Virus record (IMG/VR): IMGVR_UViG_2778261571_000014
Coordinates: 1-8,785 of that record
Length of the DNA stretch: 8,785 nucleotides
Source: a virus
Taxonomy: Duplodnaviria > Heunggongvirae > Uroviricota > Caudoviricetes
Reading direction: 5' to 3' (one strand)
The position numbers and the translations under genes are program-made. This document shows, piece by piece, positions 2,438-8,785 of the stretch. How positions within the stretch are numbered: position 1 is the first letter of the stretch; each line of letters opens with the position of its first letter. The notes under the pieces are model-generated. The model was not told where the DNA came from and did not search any database. It was given only the letters and a program-made list of their open reading frames with translations.

Positions 2438-2465
2438 AACCCACCTTCAGGTGGGTTTTTTGTTT
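2438..2465. terminator. Bidirectional rho-independent terminator (AACCCACC-ttca-GGTGGGTT followed by TTTTGTTT)
   Basis: 8-bp stem 2438-2445 / 2450-2457, loop 2446-2449, T-run to 2465 on the + strand. On the minus strand the same stem is followed by AATTTTTGCCTTTTTT. The TGA stop of the minus-strand RHH gene (2449-2447) lies in the loop. Confidence 0.6.
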
Positions 2466-2767
2466 AGCAGTTCTCTCAACTTTTCGTTCTGCTCTCTGAA
2501 CTTTTCCTGTATTTCTTTTTGCATGGCGATAACCTGGGCTTGAAGTTGAACTAGCGCATCAACATTTAGCGGAACCGAGACGCTGTTGATTTTATCTGCT
2601 ATTTCCCCGAGTGTATTTTCTGCATTCAAGGCATCTTCCAGTATCTGAACAATCTCTGAGTTCATTGATCTGCCGTTACGTTTGGCTCGTTCAGCTATAG
2701 CATCCCGCATTCCTGCAGGAAGCCTGATATTGAACCTATCCATTTCATGACTAGGGAACTTGCTCAT
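2447..2767 (-). CDS. Ribbon-helix-helix (Arc/Mnt-family) repressor, 106 aa, with a C-terminal coiled-coil-like extension
   Basis: ATG 2767-2765 preceded by GAGG with 4-nt spacing; stop TGA 2449-2447. The N-terminus DRFNIRLPAGMRDAIAERAKRNGRSMNSEIVQILEDAL matches the Arc/Mnt beta-strand and helix signature (FN.R.P ... NGRS.NSE) recalled from P22 Arc and Mnt. It is divergent from the arc-like gene, which is the Mnt position in P22 immI. Confidence 0.75.
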   Translation of the reverse strand: MSKFPSHEMDRFNIRLPAGMRDAIAERAKRNGRSMNSEIVQILEDALNAENTLGEIADKINSVSVPLNVDALVQLQAQVIAMQKEIQEKFREQNEKLRELLNKKPT

Positions 2768-2803
2768 ATGACCTCAACGTAAAGATGTTCGCTAAACAAT
2801 AGC

Positions 2804-2866
2804 ACCAACTTGACATCAAAATAAATGGTGTTAAATTGGTTCTAGAACCAAGTTGGTATCATTATA
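2804..2866. promoter_or_regulatory. Divergent control region of the immI-like locus: rightward Pant-like promoter plus palindromic operator candidates
   Basis: Seen directly: -35 TTGACA (2810-2815), 16-bp spacer, extended -10 TGtTAAATT (TG 2829-2830, hexamer 2832-2837). A perfect 16-bp palindrome TTGGTTCTAGAACCAA (2836-2851) overlaps the -10 and predicted start. A 9-bp inverted repeat ACCAACTTG (2804-2812) / CAAGTTGGT (2849-2857) flanks it. A perfect TATAAT on the minus strand (2866-2861) is a candidate leftward -10 but has no good -35. Confidence 0.5.
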
Positions 2867-2878
2867 GGAGGATTACTT

Positions 2879-3052
2879 ATGAAAGATGTGCTTTACACAG
2901 GTCGTAAAAGTCAAAGTTTTCAGCTTCGTTTGCCAGCGCGAATGAAGGAGGAGATTAGACGTGTTGCTGAAATGGATGGAATTTCTATCAACTCTGCGAT
3001 TGTGCAGCGACTGGCTAAAAGCCTGAGAGAGGAAAGAGCTAATGCCCAGTAA
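2879..3052 (+). CDS. arc: Arc-like ribbon-helix-helix repressor, 57 aa (absent from the supplied ORF track, presumably below its length cutoff)
   Basis: ATG 2879 preceded by AGGAGG (2866-2871) with 7-nt spacing; stop TAA 3050-3052. Translation MKDVLYTGRKSQSFQLRLPARMKEEIRRVAEMDGISINSAIVQRLAKSLREERANAQ aligns by eye with P22 Arc (…QFNLRWPREV…AEENGRSVNSEIYQRV…). It lies between the divergent RHH gene and the antirepressor gene, as arc does in P22. Confidence 0.75.
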   Translation: MKDVLYTGRKSQSFQLRLPARMKEEIRRVAEMDGISINSAIVQRLAKSLREERANAQ

Positions 3053-3125
3053 AAATAGTGAAGCCCAGCAGTGCGCGAACACAAACTGGGCCTCTATGTC
3101 AGTAACCGTATGCAAGGAAACTAAC

Positions 3126-3752
3126 ATGAATATTGTAGCAAAATCAGATTACAACTTCCACGGAGTTGAGTTGGTGCCCACCCGTGATATGCATGGTGTT
3201 TGGTTTACATCATCTAATATTGCATCTGCACTTAAATACGCAAATAGTCGTGCAGTAACAATGATTTATAACAAGTATAGCGATGAGTTTAGCGCCGGAA
3301 TGACTCAGGTACTCGAAGTGAGTACCTCAGGAAATTATCGCAAAAAAGTGCGAGTTTTCTCACTACGCGGTGCCCACCTAATCGCGATGTTTGCTCGCAC
3401 TCCGGTAGCCAAAGAGTTTCGCCGCTGGGTGCTGGATATTTTGGATCGGCAGGCAGAATGCTCACCGATTGCAAAACAGTTTACTGACGAAGAACTGGTT
3501 AATCTCTGCTACTTACAATTGTGGATGGAGAAGAGTCAACAAATGTGCAAACACATCTACCCAGGAATGAAGCAAATTGGTTCTGAGCTTTCAGGAAGAA
3601 TTTACGATATTGCATATGAGACTCGCTATATGTCAGAAGAAACCAAGAAATCACTTCTTCGTGAAATGAAGAATCTTGATACCAACAATTTTGTCGTAAA
3701 GAACGCTCAGCCAATGCTGACAAAACTGCGCGGCGAGGAATGGATTCATTGA
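3126..3752 (+). CDS. Phage antirepressor, Bro-N/AntA-type N-terminal domain
   Basis: Track ORF 3042..3752. Preferred start is ATG 3126, preceded by AAGGAAA with 5-nt spacing. The recognisable domain (NFHGVELVPTRDMHGVWFTSSNIASALKY … VRVFSLRGAHLIAMFARTPVAKEFRRWVLDIL) begins about 10 aa after it and matches the Bro-N/AntA pattern (F.F…WF…A..L… ending …A..F..WV). The alternative ATG 3042 overlaps the arc stop by 11 nt and cannot be excluded. Stop TGA 3750-3752. Confidence 0.7.
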   Translation: MNIVAKSDYNFHGVELVPTRDMHGVWFTSSNIASALKYANSRAVTMIYNKYSDEFSAGMTQVLEVSTSGNYRKKVRVFSLRGAHLIAMFARTPVAKEFRRWVLDILDRQAECSPIAKQFTDEELVNLCYLQLWMEKSQQMCKHIYPGMKQIGSELSGRIYDIAYETRYMSEETKKSLLREMKNLDTNNFVVKNAQPMLTKLRGEEWIH

Positions 3753-3781
3753 TTGGTGCGCCGGACGGCGCAAAAAGAAAA

Positions 3782-3802
3782 CCGCCAGTGTGCTGCTGGC
3801 GG
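3782..3802 (-). terminator. Terminator-like GC-rich hairpin on the minus strand (CCGCCAG-7 nt-CTGGCGG followed by TTTTCTTTTT)
   Basis: 7-bp stem 3782-3788 / 3796-3802. On the minus strand it is followed by a T-tract (complement of the A-run 3772-3780); on the + strand no T-tract follows. A second short hairpin GCGCC-ggac-GGCGC lies at 3758-3771. No minus-strand gene is evident upstream of it. Confidence 0.3.
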
Positions 3803-3840
3803 CCTATGTCACACCCTTACTACCACATAAGGAATGCCTA

Positions 3841-4584: not shown

Positions 4585-4615
4585 AAACCCGCTTAATCGC
4601 GGGTTTTTTCTTTCC
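4585..4615. terminator. Bidirectional rho-independent terminator (AAACCCGC-ttaatc-GCGGGTTT followed by TTTCTTTCC)
   Basis: 8-bp stem 4585-4592 / 4599-4606 with a 6-nt loop, then a T-rich tract on the + strand and AGTTTTCATT on the minus strand. It lies 19 bp after the + gene stop (4566), and the minus-strand mnt-like stop (4595-4593) sits in the loop. Confidence 0.6.
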
Positions 4616-4850
4616 TTAGAATTTCAGCCGCAACTTCTTTTACTCGTTCCGAGATTAATGAGGCCAGCCTCTCTTCTTCATCACGATACCCGCTTACAGG
4701 TGATGGTTTGGAGAGTGATTCTTCCATCGTAGCCACAATTTCGGAATTGATAGACCTGTTATTCATTTTTGCACGCTGCTTAATCTTAGCGTGCAACTCG
4801 TGCGTAAGCCTCAAGTGGAACTGCGCCTCATCGTATTTGCTGTACATCAT
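4593..4850 (-). CDS. mnt: Mnt-type ribbon-helix-helix repressor homolog, 85 aa
   Basis: Track ORF 4593..4928(-). Preferred start is ATG 4850-4848, preceded by GAGG with 5-nt spacing. The product MMYSKYDEAQFHLRLTHELHAKIKQRAKMNNRSINSEIVATMEESLSKPSPVSGYRDEEERLASL… aligns along its length with P22 Mnt as recalled (…HFNFRMPMEVREKLKFRAEANGRSMNSELLQIVQDALSKPSPVTGYRNDAERLA…). The upstream extension (MHTEMVRLLICTVGFTMPFHPFGEAL) has no RBS. Confidence 0.8.
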   Translation of the reverse strand: MMYSKYDEAQFHLRLTHELHAKIKQRAKMNNRSINSEIVATMEESLSKPSPVSGYRDEEERLASLISERVKEVAAEILRKEKTRD

Positions 4851-4982
4851 CAATGCCTCACCAAATGGGTGGAATGGCATCGTAAAACCTACTGTACAAA
4901 TCAACAATCGTACCATTTCGGTATGCAATAAACACCAACCGTAGCCATGCTGCGGCGATTCCTTGTATCTGGAGCAAATTAA

Positions 4983-6896
4983 ATGACAGATTCAATAAAT
5001 GCCAATGTTGTAGTAAGCATGCCTTCTCAACTCTTCACTATGGCTCGTTCTTTTAAAGCCGTAGCCAATGGCAAAATTTATATCGGTAAAATTGACACGG
5101 ACCCGGTAAATCCTGAAAACCAGATTCAGGTTTATGTGGAGAACGAAGATGGTTCTCACGTTCCTGTTTCGCAACCAATCATCATTAACGCTGCTGGATA
5201 TCCGGTATATAACGGACAGATTGCTAAGTTCGTAACTGTGCAAGGCCATTCTATGGCTGTTTATGATGCGTATGGTGCACAGCAGTTCAATTTTCCAAAC
5301 GTGCTGAAGTATGATCCTGATCAGTTTCGTCAGGAACTGGCAGGTAATAGTGGTGCGTCACAGATTGGTTCCTCATCAGGAAATACTGTTCAACAAGAAA
5401 TAGATCGTCTAAATAAATTTGGTTATGCTTATGGTGTTAGATTAAGCGCGTATATGCATGAAAGCGACCCCTTAACAAGCGCCCTGACTGCATCACGGGA
5501 AAAAAGACTACCACTTGTCATTGATTGTGATGCGACATATAAAACTTTAGTGGTTTACAGTAATGACAGAATAATTGGCTGCGGTGATCATACATTAACA
5601 AAATCCGGTAATGATAAGCCATCCATTCCACCGGCACAACAACCAGAACGCCCTTCTGGTTCGATGACTAATTTTAGTGAAATTGATGCAGGTATCGTTA
5701 TTGTTCACCCTGACAATGGGTCGGCAACCAATATTATTATTTCAGGGTTTAACCTCGCGACTAACTCACATTGCGACTATGCGATACATTGCTCTTTCAT
5801 GTCTTTTACAAAAATAGAAGATATGAAGTTCAACGGGTACAAGCGTGGGATTAAATGGTACACCGCCTATGGAAATCAGCTATCCAGAATATTTTCACTT
5901 TACTACTATTCTGTCACTGATGTTTTTTCAGACTATATTTGCTACGATTTTTCTGACGGTAACTACCCATCAGGCACATCAAATACCCTAACAAACGTAA
6001 CATGCACCAACTATAAGAAATGCTATTACGTAGCAAATCTAAACTACTCTACATTTACCAATTGTGGTGGTGAAGGAGTAGAGTCACCAACACCAGTATC
6101 CACAGGAAACATCCCACAGACCTTCGAGTTTGTCAATTGCCCTAATATTGTCCTGAATACACCATATACTGAGAATTTAAGGGGTGGATTTATAAGGGCA
6201 GTTAGTGATGCATCCGGGGTGTATCAAGGTGCCGCAACTATGGTCATCAATGGGCCAGAGGCGGTCGTGGGTATCACAGGCACCACTACCAATGTTGGCG
6301 CTAAGCTTCTGGACATTCAGGGAGGAGTTAACTGTGTGATAAACGGTGGATACATGACAGGTGCTGCAAGTGGGTATTTCCTTGAGTTTGGTGGGGCATC
6401 GGATGACGCAACCCTTACGATAATAGGGATGGAAATGCGCAACGTATTAGAACAAATACGAAACCATCCTGGATATAACGGAATTAACTCTATAAAAGGG
6501 TTAAGGCCTATGCAGTTACTTCGTAAAGGGATTGGAGATGCGACCGGGACCGGGATAGTAAACTGGAAAACAGCTGCCGAAGACCAGTATTTTATGGGCG
6601 GGGGAAATTTCACTAAAACAATACTTGGTGGATTTTATAAGATAGAAATTACGTTACCCATAGGATCTTCCGCATCAGGCGGAGAAGTTCAACTCTTGCT
6701 GTCAGATACGGATACAGACAATGGAGTTATAATTTCACAATGCTATGTTCCTCCAGTGTCAAGCGGTAAGTTTACTGCCTCCATAAGCTACGAGGGTAGA
6801 TTGCCAGGTGGAAAGTTTCTTTATGTAAAAACTAATAATGCCAATTGGTCATCTGGATACGATCCAGACTCAATATTTAATGTTGTTCTGAAATAA
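4983..6896 (+). CDS. Tailspike protein (P22 gp9-like N-terminal head-binding domain; divergent C-terminal receptor-binding domain), 637 aa
   Basis: ATG 4983 preceded by GGAG with 8-nt spacing; stop TAA 6894-6896. The first ~113 aa ([12 protein letters not shown]…[21 protein letters not shown]…ENEDGSHV…[12 protein letters not shown]…VLKYDPDQ) closely match the P22 tailspike N-terminus as recalled. The rest is Gly/Thr/Asn/Ser-rich, consistent with a beta-rich receptor-binding domain, and is not recognisably P22-like. Confidence 0.9.
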
Positions 6897-7284
6897 CAAT
6901 ATTTATAATGATGCACGCAAAGCTTTGTACTGGATTGCAAGGCTTTGCGCTATACGATAGTGGCTAAGGTGGGTCACTCTACCTTCTCATCAATCCAGTC
7001 CGCCCACCATTGCATCATTTCTCTGCGCTTAACGTAGCGGATGCCTCACTATCACACGGTGATGGTTCATTACTGGTTTGCAGAATGGATAGAGAACTGA
7101 GGATAAAAGATATCCCAAAACCCCAAAATCTCATCTTTAGGATTTGCAGAAAGGTAGGCGTGAACAGATACCTACGCATGAAGACGGGACTAGCTCAGAT
7201 GTGATATTTGTGGTGATCACATACATCATCAACGATGCTCGTTATGGTGAGTTTGATGACTACCCGCTGAAGTGAAAATTGTGT

Positions 7285-7308
7285 TGTGTACCAAATTGCG
7301 TACCAAAC
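7285..7308. repeat. Tandem 12-bp direct repeat (TGTGTACCAAAT / TGCGTACCAAAC) in the prophage-host junction region
   Basis: Two adjacent 12-mers identical at 10 of 12 positions; the core GTACCAAA occurs at 7288-7295 and 7300-7307. Function unknown; could be a protein-binding site or an att-proximal arm-type site. Confidence 0.3.
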
Positions 7309-7618
7309 TAAAATCACAAATCATGAAACCCTTGTTCATGGCGGTTCTCAGGGGTGTTTCGCGTAATCGTGAAACAAAAAGGTAGATTGTTGCTTACCGT
7401 CATTCATCATTAGGTTAAATCCGTTATTTCTGCTGTCTGCCAGAGTATCAAATATCACCGTGCTAATCAGCTTTAGCGCCACAATTTGGCAGCGAGTGGC
7501 AACAGATCATGTCAGATAAAAATGAGAGGGTAGTCACATTTTCTTGCACTTTATTCCAGCCAGTTCATAAGTATTTCCGTAAAAAGAACAGCTATTTGAA
7601 ACTCCTGAGGGTTTGCTG

Positions 7619-8785
7619 TTGAAACGCCGTCTTATTATTGCTGCTTCTTTGTTCGTTTTTAACTTATCGTCTGGTTTTGCGGCGGAAAACATTCCTTTTT
7701 CACCTCAGCCTCCAGAGATTCATGCCGGGTCCTGGGTATTGATGGATTACACCACCAGTCAGATCCTCACCGCGGTTAATGAGCATCAACAGCGCAATCC
7801 CGCCAGCCTGACAAAGCTGATGACGGGTTATGTCGTGGATCGCGCTATCGATAGTCATCGCATTACGCCAGACGATATTGTCACCGTGGGGCGCGATGCG
7901 TGGGCGAAAGATAATCCGGTGTTTGTCGGTTCTTCACTGATGTTTTTGAAAGAGGGCGATCGCGTATCGGTACGTGATTTAAGCCGTGGTTTAATTGTGG
8001 ATTCCGGAAATGACGCTTGTGTTGCTCTGGCTGACTATATTGCCGGTGGGCAACGGCAGTTTGTTGAAATGATGAACAACTATGCCGAGAAGCTGCATCT
8101 CAAGGATACGCATTTTGAAACAGTGCATGGTCTGGATGCACCTGGCCAGCATAGCTCGGCTTATGATTTAGCTGTGCTTTCTCGCGCTATCATCCACGGC
8201 GAGCCCGAGTTTTATCATATGTACAGTGAGAAAAGTCTCACCTGGAACGGTATCACCCAGCAAAACCGTAACGGGTTGTTGTGGGATAAAACCATGAATG
8301 TTGACGGCCTGAAAACGGGTCATACTTCTGGTGCCGGGTTTAATCTCATTGCTTCGGCTGTAGATGGGCAGCGTCGTCTCATTGCAGTGGTAATGGGGGC
8401 TGACAGTGCAAAAGGTCGTGAGGAAGAGGCAAGAAAATTACTGCGTTGGGGGCAACAAAACTTTACTACGGTGCAAATTTTGCACCGTGGGAAAAAGGTC
8501 GGAACGGAACGCATCTGGTATGGCGATAAAGAAAATATCGACCTGGGAACGGAACAAGAGTTCTGGATGGTGCTACCGAAAGCCGAAATTCCACATATCA
8601 AAGCCAAATATACCCTTGATGGTAAAGAGCTCACCGCGCCAATTAGCGCCCATCAGCGGGTAGGGGAAATTGAACTTTACGACCGTGATAAACAGGTGGC
8701 GCACTGGCCGCTGGTTACCCTGGAATCTGTCGGGGAAGGCGGCATGTTTTCCCGCCTGAGTGATTATTTCCACCATAAGGCCTGA
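7619..8785 (+). CDS. dacD: D-alanyl-D-alanine carboxypeptidase DacD (penicillin-binding protein 6b), host gene
   Basis: The translation carries the three class-A PBP active-site motifs: SxxK (NPASLTKLMT), SGN (VDSGNDA) and KTG (GLKTGHT), behind a signal-peptide-like N-terminus (RRLIIAASLFVFNLSSGFA). It matches E. coli DacD as I recall it. Preferred start is TTG 7619, with GAGG (7607-7610) 8 nt upstream, giving the 388-aa MKRRLII… protein; the track's TTG 7613 has only 2-nt spacing. Stop TGA 8783-8785. Confidence 0.9.
   Translation: MKRRLIIAASLFVFNLSSGFAAENIPFSPQPPEIHAGSWVLMDYTTSQILTAVNEHQQRNPASLTKLMTGYVVDRAIDSHRITPDDIVTVGRDAWAKDNPVFVGSSLMFLKEGDRVSVRDLSRGLIVDSGNDACVALADYIAGGQRQFVEMMNNYAEKLHLKDTHFETVHGLDAPGQHSSAYDLAVLSRAIIHGEPEFYHMYSEKSLTWNGITQQNRNGLLWDKTMNVDGLKTGHTSGAGFNLIASAVDGQRRLIAVVMGADSAKGREEEARKLLRWGQQNFTTVQILHRGKKVGTERIWYGDKENIDLGTEQEFWMVLPKAEIPHIKAKYTLDGKELTAPISAHQRVGEIELYDRDKQVAHWPLVTLESVGEGGMFSRLSDYFHHKA

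Follow-up and report, generated by a model that had tools for sequence, protein, structure and literature searches.

A perfect 16-bp palindrome, TTGGTTCTAGAACCAA (2836-2851, with no strand assigned), lies in the 111-bp gap separating two divergent genes for RHH proteins, and it raises the question of whether it is an operator and, if so, for which of the two proteins. It is the only perfect palindrome of this length in the window, by which we mean the whole stretch of 8,785 nucleotides analyzed, and its surroundings from 2800 to 2870 read tagcaccaacTTGACAtcaaaataaatggTGtTAAATTggttctagaaccaagttggtatcatt. We consider it likely that this is the core operator through which a 106-aa Mnt-like repressor turns off the arc-like/ant-like promoter in the immI-like region of a P22-like Escherichia coli prophage.

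Divergent genes, promoters, and repeated units

The leftward gene of the open reading frame list (2447-2767, minus strand) encodes the 106-aa protein, which matches the Pfam Arc domain (PF03869) with an E value of 1.6e-20 and combines a beta-strand, DRFNIRLP (residues 10 to 17), with a long C-terminal helix. At the end of this gene the terminator scan placed a terminator-like hairpin (2438-2457, minus strand), bidirectional and with T-runs on both strands. For its part, the rightward gene from the same list (2879-3052, plus strand) encodes a 57-aa Arc-like protein with the beta-strand SFQLRLP and a match to the same Pfam family (E value of 8.3e-12), and it is the first gene of the operon of the rightward promoter. 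Both matches are above the curated cutoff.

The rightward promoter (2810-2837, plus strand), the equivalent of P22 Pant, consists of a -35 TTGACA (2810-2815), a 16-nt spacer, and a -10 TAAATT (2832-2837), with a predicted start at about 2844. The first-pass annotation had reported the perfect palindrome, the perfect -35, and the overlap of the palindrome with the -10 and the predicted start, and the coordinates of all three agreed with the sequence. It did not mention the TG at 2829-2830, which makes the element an extended -10 (TGnTAAATT). With this TG the promoter matched the consensus at 10 of 12 positions and was the top-scoring one of the scan between 2300 and 5100. The palindrome covers the end of the -10 and the predicted transcription start, where we propose the Omnt equivalent.

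By itself the palindrome is weak evidence, because a perfect 16-bp palindrome arose in 14.5% of the windows simulated with a first-order Markov model (8.8 kb, same composition; mean of 0.16 per window). TTGGT/ACCAA pentamers, for their part, occur four times within 56 bp, a number that none of 400 simulations reached (maximum, three).

The 62 bp from 2800 to 2861 are made up of three copies of a 19-bp unit, TAGnACCAAnTTrryAyCA, which together span both divergent promoters. Unit U1, TAGCACCAACTTGACATCA (2800-2818, plus strand), matches each of the other two at 15 of 19 positions; the head box of this unit, TAGCACCAA, shares bases with the leftward -10 and is directly adjacent to the rightward -35. 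U2 (2826-2844, minus strand; reverse complement, TAGAACCAATTTAACACCA) spans the -10 together with the extended -10 and the palindrome's left half, and U3, TAGAACCAAGTTGGTATCA (2843-2861, plus strand), spans the right half plus a downstream tail box; these two agree at 14 of 19 positions, and the palindrome is their head-to-head junction. The star score of the three copies was 30, compared with a mean of 23 and a maximum of 27 in shuffled sequences, and with either type of shuffle 0 of 1,000 reached 30. ACCA-type boxes recur every 10 to 12 bp, approximately, from 2805 to 2849, and the boxes extend from about -45 to +18. Multi-box operators of RHH proteins, such as those of omega of pSM19035, CopG, and MetJ, consist of short direct or inverted boxes at roughly helical spacing that are bound by cooperative RHH dimers. 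The three 19-bp units bring these operators to mind, although box length and spacing differ from theirs.

The palindrome had also been described as nested in a larger inverted repeat. The repeat exists, its arms ACCAACTTG (2804-2812) and CAAGTTGGT (2849-2857), both given on the plus strand, being 100% complementary; the nesting, however, gave way to a different arrangement, in which the palindrome is the center of the three-unit array and the arms are parts of U1 and U3, respectively. In the relatives described below, the complementarity of the arms ranged from 5 to 9 of 9 positions (mean, 7.7), no better than the conservation of the 19-bp units (10 to 17 of 19), and the repeat was rejected as a separate larger operator. 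In two groups of relatives (L066 and L091), the right arm is a direct copy of ACCAAnTTGACA. Judging from these comparisons, we treat the outer repeat as a probable consequence of the repeated units. The large U1/U2 inverted repeat is visible in the fold as well.

A candidate leftward promoter for the mnt-like gene (2795-2803, minus strand) comprises an extended -10, TGCTATTGT. Transcription from it is predicted to begin near 2788, which would place the start upstream of a GAGG and some 21 nt ahead of the ATG of the mnt-like gene. Its TG-n-TA---T positions are invariant in 36 related sequences (family I, see below), in which the other -10 positions vary (TATTGT, TATCAT, TACTAT, TACCAT, TATTAT). 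It has no good -35 and was not called by the consensus promoter scan; its -35 region would fall within the spacer of the rightward promoter. The invariant TAGCA is shared by this -10 and by box a, so that two causes of conservation are confounded in it. Since the candidate promoter overlaps box a and its -35 region would lie in the rightward spacer, promoter competition and autoregulation are both plausible. A minus-strand TATAAT (2866-2861) was rejected as the mnt promoter, since CACAAT or CAAAAT replaces it in relatives.

Conservation in related modules

Relatives were gathered by an exact-palindrome scan of IMG/VR, a scan with the Arc-like protein (80 loci), and a scan with the Mnt-like N-terminal domain, with one genome per species. 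The first of these, a search of other prophages that the first-pass annotation had suggested, returned 37 loci, about one-third of them unrelated chance matches in coding DNA and the rest the Mnt-like/Arc-like module. The loci with a window-type Mnt-like N terminus yielded the family I alignment, 36 distinct intergenic sequences from Escherichia, a Salmonella phage, Erwinia (Erwinia aeris), and Xenorhabdus (Xenorhabdus hominickii), with a gap-free core. In the Salmonella siphophage vB_SosS_Oslo, the module is 76% identical to that of the window and is located between tail genes; AAACAATAGCACCAACTTGACAT and TAAATGGTGnTAAATTGGTTCTAGAACCAAGTTGGTATCATT are identical in both, and the start of the spacer and both leaders differ. 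Besides the Salmonella siphophage and the Erwinia and Xenorhabdus genomes, P22-like prophages of E. coli have this operator class; 20 of 5426 complete genomes of that species contain it, and none of the 20 has a feature annotated over the operator. In Stx-converting phages, the tail-gene region contains a related module whose class is different.

All 36 sequences share TAGCACC (in U1), CTTGACA, GTGnTAAATTGG, the T-G at the center, and the CCA of the right half, and the flanks vary. Both promoter elements, CTTGACA and GTGnTAAATT, are kept, at constant spacing. Within the palindrome the outer TTGG...CCAA is fixed and the central bases vary (TTGGTwsTrGnACCAA), the central CTAG being the least conserved part. 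Of the 8 pairs, 5 to 8 retain their symmetry (mean, 6.9), and where changes occur they affect one side only. Because the center is not conserved, the perfect symmetry itself is not under selection. As far as sequence comparison can tell, it is this conservation in relatives that is the decisive argument that the palindrome is real.

That the palindrome arose by chance and has no function, as its frequency in simulated windows would allow, is hardly credible given its placement in the only divergent RHH intergenic region, the invariance of the outer half-sites and promoter elements across four genera, and the presence in every related module of a family-specific equivalent at the same place.

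Scarcely better is the prospect that the symmetry works in the nucleic acid itself and not as a protein site, through a DNA cruciform or through an RNA hairpin of the arc leader or of late read-through transcripts. RNA from 2795 to 2880 folds at -19.4 kcal/mol (z, -2.7), but transcription is predicted to start halfway through the palindrome, which would leave only half of it in the rightward transcript, and a loop-less 16-bp palindrome makes a weak hairpin. Moreover, the changes in relatives are not compensatory (e.g., TTGGTTGTAGAACCAA), whereas those in a genuine hairpin farther downstream are (see below). Fixed outer half-sites together with one-sided changes are, as read from the alignment, the pattern of protein half-sites and not that of a hairpin.

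Assignment of the palindrome to an RHH protein

The palindrome classes were compared at one position, just after the -10, according to the type of Mnt-like beta-strand encoded next to them. Strands of the RFN[IV]RLP type are accompanied by TTGGTnnTAGnACCAA (TTGGT..ACCAA), RFTVRMP by GCATCAAAATGATGC, PFGLRMP by CACGGTGTAATCATTACACCGTG, KFM[VL]RFP by GTCACAGTGAC...GTCACCGTGAC, and the P22-like VFNLRMP by ACCCCACGGTGGGGT, which has CCACGGTGG in common with the experimentally defined Omnt of P22. Family II has the layout of family I with TAGCATCAw boxes (TAGCATCAT); thus, an Asn-to-Thr change in the recognition strand (RFNVRLP to RFTVRMP) appears to accompany a C-to-T change in the box (TAGCACCAA to TAGCATCAw), a correspondence seen in two families only.

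The domains of the Mnt-like proteins have been exchanged among the relatives. The window-type N terminus, with its operator, is paired with at least three unrelated C-terminal domains (that of the window, that of Oslo and E7476, and that of L042). Conversely, Stx2a_WGPS8 has the C-terminal domain of the window but the beta-strand KFNLRFP and another operator (GGTGCCA...TGGCACC). For their part, L042 and the Xenorhabdus locus L126 encode other Arc-like beta-strands (VVFNLRLP and TQFSLRLP, respectively) and keep the TTGGT...ACCAA boxes, and Arc-like proteins identical over their first 30 residues are neighbors of operators of both families I and II. It is the Mnt-like N-terminal domain, and not the Arc-like protein, that the operator accompanies, and we therefore assign the palindrome to the 106-aa protein: on these comparisons it is most likely the equivalent of Omnt, the predicted site of this repressor. 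Since no more than about 70 bp separates the palindrome from the codons for the Mnt-like N terminus (about 30 bp in the case of the box closest to them), linkage could contribute to this co-inheritance, which could reflect a single recombination block instead of recognition.

Among solved structures, the relatives of the Mnt-like domain are AmrZ, Arc, and Mnt. The top match of the N-terminal domain was AmrZ of Pseudomonas aeruginosa (PDB 3qoq; E value of 1.3e-8), with which it has in common the motif xKF/RFxxRLPxGMR, an extended arm at the N terminus, and, after these, a C-terminal oligomerization region; AmrZ, however, is a chromosomal global regulator outside any phage antirepressor switch. 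A single-sequence AF2 model of the 106-aa protein contains helices at residues 18 to 30, 36 to 62, and 69 to 102, with a pLDDT of 66 that exceeds 80 in the last helix only. In this low-confidence model, the 34-residue C-terminal helix would fit a Mnt-like role in oligomerization. The PDB matches of the 57-aa protein are P22 Arc and engineered Arc variants.

The assignment leaves the Arc-like protein to be placed. A 21-bp TAGA-type operator between the -35 and the -10 is not present at the locus, and TTGACAT was the only k-mer shared by families I, II, V, and VI, which have the same Arc type; no other candidate for an Arc-like site emerged from that comparison. The spacer contains an imperfect repeat, ACATCAA-N5-ATGGTGT (2813-2831), near perfect in some relatives and not conserved in others.

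A possible arrangement, although a rather doubtful one, is that two operators are interleaved, the Mnt-like protein reading the ACCAA/TTGGT head boxes and the Arc-like protein reading AyCA(T)/ATGrTG tail boxes. We are equally tentative about the spacer repeat at 2813-2831 as an example of such an Arc-like site, in the promoter spacer where Oarc lies in P22. The analogous position speaks for this arrangement, as do the distance of about 11 bp between tail and head boxes, the near-perfect CACCAT-N5-ATGGTG in the spacers of the VVFNLRLP-type Arc-like loci that were read fully (the L108-L117 group and L120), and the recurrence of GACATCAT and AATGGTG in families I, II, and V, all of the SFQLRLP Arc type. 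However, the L066 group has a poor spacer repeat (CATTGT) although its Arc type is identical, the shared half-sites are not equally spaced in all families (5 nt versus 1 nt), and TTGACAT alone is common to all families of that type. Within family I, a link between the Arc type (FNLRLP or FQLRLP, i.e., N or Q) and the flanking base (G or A; GGTGCCAT or GGTATCAT) was considered and rejected, as it is broken by the Erwinia locus L125.

It is less probable that 2800-2861 is a single array read solely by a higher-order oligomer of the Mnt-like protein and controlling both divergent promoters, with no operator for the Arc-like protein in it. It is just as improbable that the latter, a highly conserved protein, acts in a manner different from that of P22 Arc and, as this would entail, is freely reassorted with four or more operator families. 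It may then use the universal TTGACAT of the -35, a site traveling with its own gene, or a protein-protein contact. If this were true, the natural pairs of Mnt-like beta-strand and box would constitute a readable recognition code for RHH proteins.

More improbable still is that the palindrome serves the 57-aa Arc-like protein as an autoregulatory operator, with the Mnt-like protein bound elsewhere, e.g., at the box that precedes the -35. In favor of this are the place of the Arc-like gene, which is transcribed first from the promoter, the autoregulation of Pant by P22 Arc according to the P22 annotation, and a likeness of the central CTAG/TCTAGA to the TAGA boxes of P22 Oarc; in addition, no other Arc-like site was found. 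Against this, the family I and II operators adjoining Arc-like proteins with the same 30 N-terminal residues share TTGACAT only, the boxes persist in L042 and L126 despite clearly different Arc-like beta-strands, and it is precisely the central CTAG that is least conserved.

Comparison with P22 and proposed working of the switch

We identify the window as the immI-like region ("ant moron") of a P22-like prophage of E. coli. Prophages of 14 complete E. coli genomes share a 1.4-kb block of it at 98.8 to 99.9% identity. One of these genomes is that of strain 55989, in which the block lies between the DNA transfer genes and the tailspike of a P22-like prophage (annotated order: DNA transfer protein ... 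Arc family [minus strand]/Arc family [plus strand]/P22AR C-terminal domain protein ... head-binding [tailspike] protein). The variable position of the ant moron, or immI, in P22-like phages has been described (PMC2629481; PMC8022706), and an unrelated deletion of Mnt is on record for the LF82 prophage Gally (PMC9928086).

Downstream of the Arc-like gene lies a gene related to P22 ant (3126-3752, plus strand), the product of which matches Pfam Bro-N (E value of 2.2e-10) and P22_AR_C (E value of 4.1e-14) and is a predicted antirepressor. Its start is that of the RefSeq annotation of E. coli 55989, with an alternative ATG at 3042. Between the arc-like stop and the ant-like start, the minus strand would encode an antisense RNA of about 75 nt (3050-3125) with two stem-loops, covering the ant ribosome-binding site and folding at -32.3 kcal/mol (z, -5.2). 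Its terminal hairpin (3060-3094), followed by a U-run (conserved TTTTT), is kept in 33 diverse relatives; 5 of its 9 pairs are changed on both sides, and one of them occurs as five pair types, none of them broken. The conserved hairpin with its compensatory changes suggests a sar-like RNA. A candidate promoter for it lies just inside the ant-like gene (3132-3140, minus strand), with an extended -10, TGCTACAAT, that was missed by the consensus scan because its -35 is poor; relatives keep TAnnnT (TACAAT, TATACT, TACACT, TAAACT) despite differing Ant N termini. An Rfam scan of the window (E value up to 1) yielded no sar or other relevant family, only two matches at chance level.

The region resembles P22 immI, annotated with Pant, Pmnt, Oarc, Omnt, and sar, in several respects. 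The gene order is the same, with divergent mnt and arc-ant between DNA injection genes and tailspike; the RHH repressor has an added C-terminal segment, here a putative one for oligomerization; the -35 is a perfect TTGACA; a symmetric operator, here predicted, follows right after the -10, over the start of the ant promoter, at the annotated position of the Mnt operator; and an antisense RNA hairpin, here predicted, lies between arc and ant. There are differences as well. The 106-aa protein has a different C-terminal domain from that of the 82-aa P22 Mnt, to which it is 40% identical in a seven-sequence alignment, and RFNIRLP as its recognition strand in place of HFNFRMP. The palindrome is offset by 26 positions from the start of the -35, compared with 35 in P22, and the candidate leftward -10 lies outside the -35 of Pant, whereas in P22 it lies inside. 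Extra copies of the half-site, not obvious in P22, occur in the spacer and ahead of the -35. Most other operator families likewise have a copy immediately before the -35, but neither the P22-like family nor P22 itself has an evident one. The 57-aa protein, with 38% identity to P22 Arc, resembles it in domain, in size, and in being encoded at the head of the ant operon; its recognition residues are S/Q/R versus Q/N/R. A second RHH gene of the window (4593-4850) encodes a closer homologue of P22 Mnt than the 106-aa protein.

The operator itself is unrelated to those of P22. By direct comparison and alignment, TTGGTTCTAGAACCAA matched neither Omnt (AGGTCCACGGTGGACCT) nor Oarc (ATGATAGAAGCACTCTACTAT), as had been supposed in the first-pass annotation. 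The gene layout and the place of the proposed operator are those of P22 immI, the operator sequence is not, and we therefore place the palindrome in a separate specificity class. The earlier analogy with Omnt/Oarc over Pant stands insofar as the palindrome follows the Mnt-like protein, but an equivalent of Oarc was not located. The underlying idea of an RHH operator repressing an antirepressor promoter draws support from gene content, position, and comparative data, which make it a probable one. The exact 16-mer is absent from the searchable literature, and no paper characterizing the operator was found in relation to immI, Mnt, Arc, or the antirepressor. Very probably, this is a genuine regulatory element of a kind known from P22, with a different and uncharacterized DNA sequence.

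On binding, RHH dimers would contact the TTGGT and ACCAA half-sites, spaced by about one helical turn, with their two-stranded beta-sheet (R11, N13, and R15 of DRFNIRLP) inserted in the major groove, and the long C-terminal helix would join dimers into a higher oligomer. The bound protein would cover the last bases of the -10 and the start (approximately 2844), so that RNA polymerase would be blocked from starting. Since the upstream unit overlaps the conserved leftward extended -10 (TGCTATTGT), the repressor probably sets its own expression too, and competition between the two overlapping promoters, known from P22, is probable here.

The general picture of how an antirepressor switch works is unchanged by this operator. 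Such switches decide on the silence of a prophage, and on the induction of, or resistance to, related phages, and knowledge of the operator would help to predict which prophages share secondary immunity. The mosaic relatives, for their part, provide natural domain swaps and pairs of beta-strand and half-site, which may be used for the study of RHH recognition and for orthogonal small repressors.

Domain exchange in the mnt-like gene and recombination beside the proposed operator

The Mnt-like proteins of the window and of the related loci L002 (Salmonella siphophage Oslo), L004 (phage Stx2a_WGPS8), L005 and L042 show domain shuffling, with one RHH domain found joined to three or more C-terminal domains that are unrelated to each other. 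The region concerned corresponds to positions 2620-2721 of the window, approximately, within the mnt-like gene. The C-terminal domain of the window's own protein occurs with a different RHH domain in at least eight Stx-converting phages, which show 95.7% identity to the window over 2440-2721, the homology ending at the codons for the beta-strand.

Exchange was also observed on the other side of the operator. The loci L003 and L058 to L061 are recombinants whose homology with the window begins at 2859, just to the right of the operator. Their Arc-like and Ant-like genes are of the window's type, their operator belongs to family II, and their Mnt, flagged as a pseudogene in RefSeq, consists of the RHH domain only (48 aa). 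L003 is a plasmid-like E. coli record (NZ_CP146561.1), and this circular 39.9-kb replicon may represent a phage that was induced or is not integrated.

A predicted antisense RNA at the arc-ant junction

A sar-like antisense RNA is predicted on the minus strand at 3050-3140, opposite the arc-ant junction. Its predicted fold (z -5.2) has two stem-loops, of which the terminal hairpin (3060-3094), followed by a U-run, is kept in 33 relatives and shows compensatory changes. The RNA had no match in Rfam. A candidate extended -10 for it, TGCTACAAT, lies at 3140-3132 on the same strand. Between the ant-like gene and the 258-aa ORF, the minus strand also carries a strong terminator-like hairpin (3779-3805) of 10 pairs followed by a T-run, with no obvious minus-strand gene ending at it.

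A second RHH gene and the right end of the window

A second RHH gene (4593-4850, minus strand) is divergent from the tailspike gene (4983-6896), and the gap between them (4851-4982) contains an imperfect 15-nt inverted repeat, TGCCTCACCAAATGG (4854-4868) and CCATTTCGGTATGCA (4913-4927). In RefSeq, the homologue from E. coli 55989 (84 aa) is named "Arc family protein". The C-terminal part of the second RHH protein (PSPVSGYRDEEERLA...) is closer to P22 Mnt than the 106-aa protein is, and the window thus contains two Mnt-like regulators. In the LF82 prophage Gally, a Mnt gene adjoining the tailspike gene has been reported to be strongly induced in macrophages (PMC9928086).

The approximately 700 bp that follow the tailspike gene, from 6897, contain no convincing ORF. 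Positions 6897-8785 probably represent the prophage-host junction, whereas the equivalent prophage of E. coli 55989 has a different end, with an acyltransferase gene and intS. The ORF that starts at 7613 and runs off the window end (8785) may encode, judging from its translation, a D-alanyl-D-alanine carboxypeptidase (penicillin-binding protein).

Spread and variation of the module

Within family I, the relative from Xenorhabdus hominickii (L126) carries an extra, fourth operator unit; in this locus a duplicate of GCTAAATTGGTTTT, with its -10-like TAAATT, lies downstream of the palindrome. The mnt-arc-ant module also occurs outside the P22-like podophages: Oslo has it, as do Stx-converting phages such as Stx2a_WGPS8. 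There it lies amid tail genes, close to those for the tape measure or minor tail proteins, and the module is therefore a cassette that moves between phage types.
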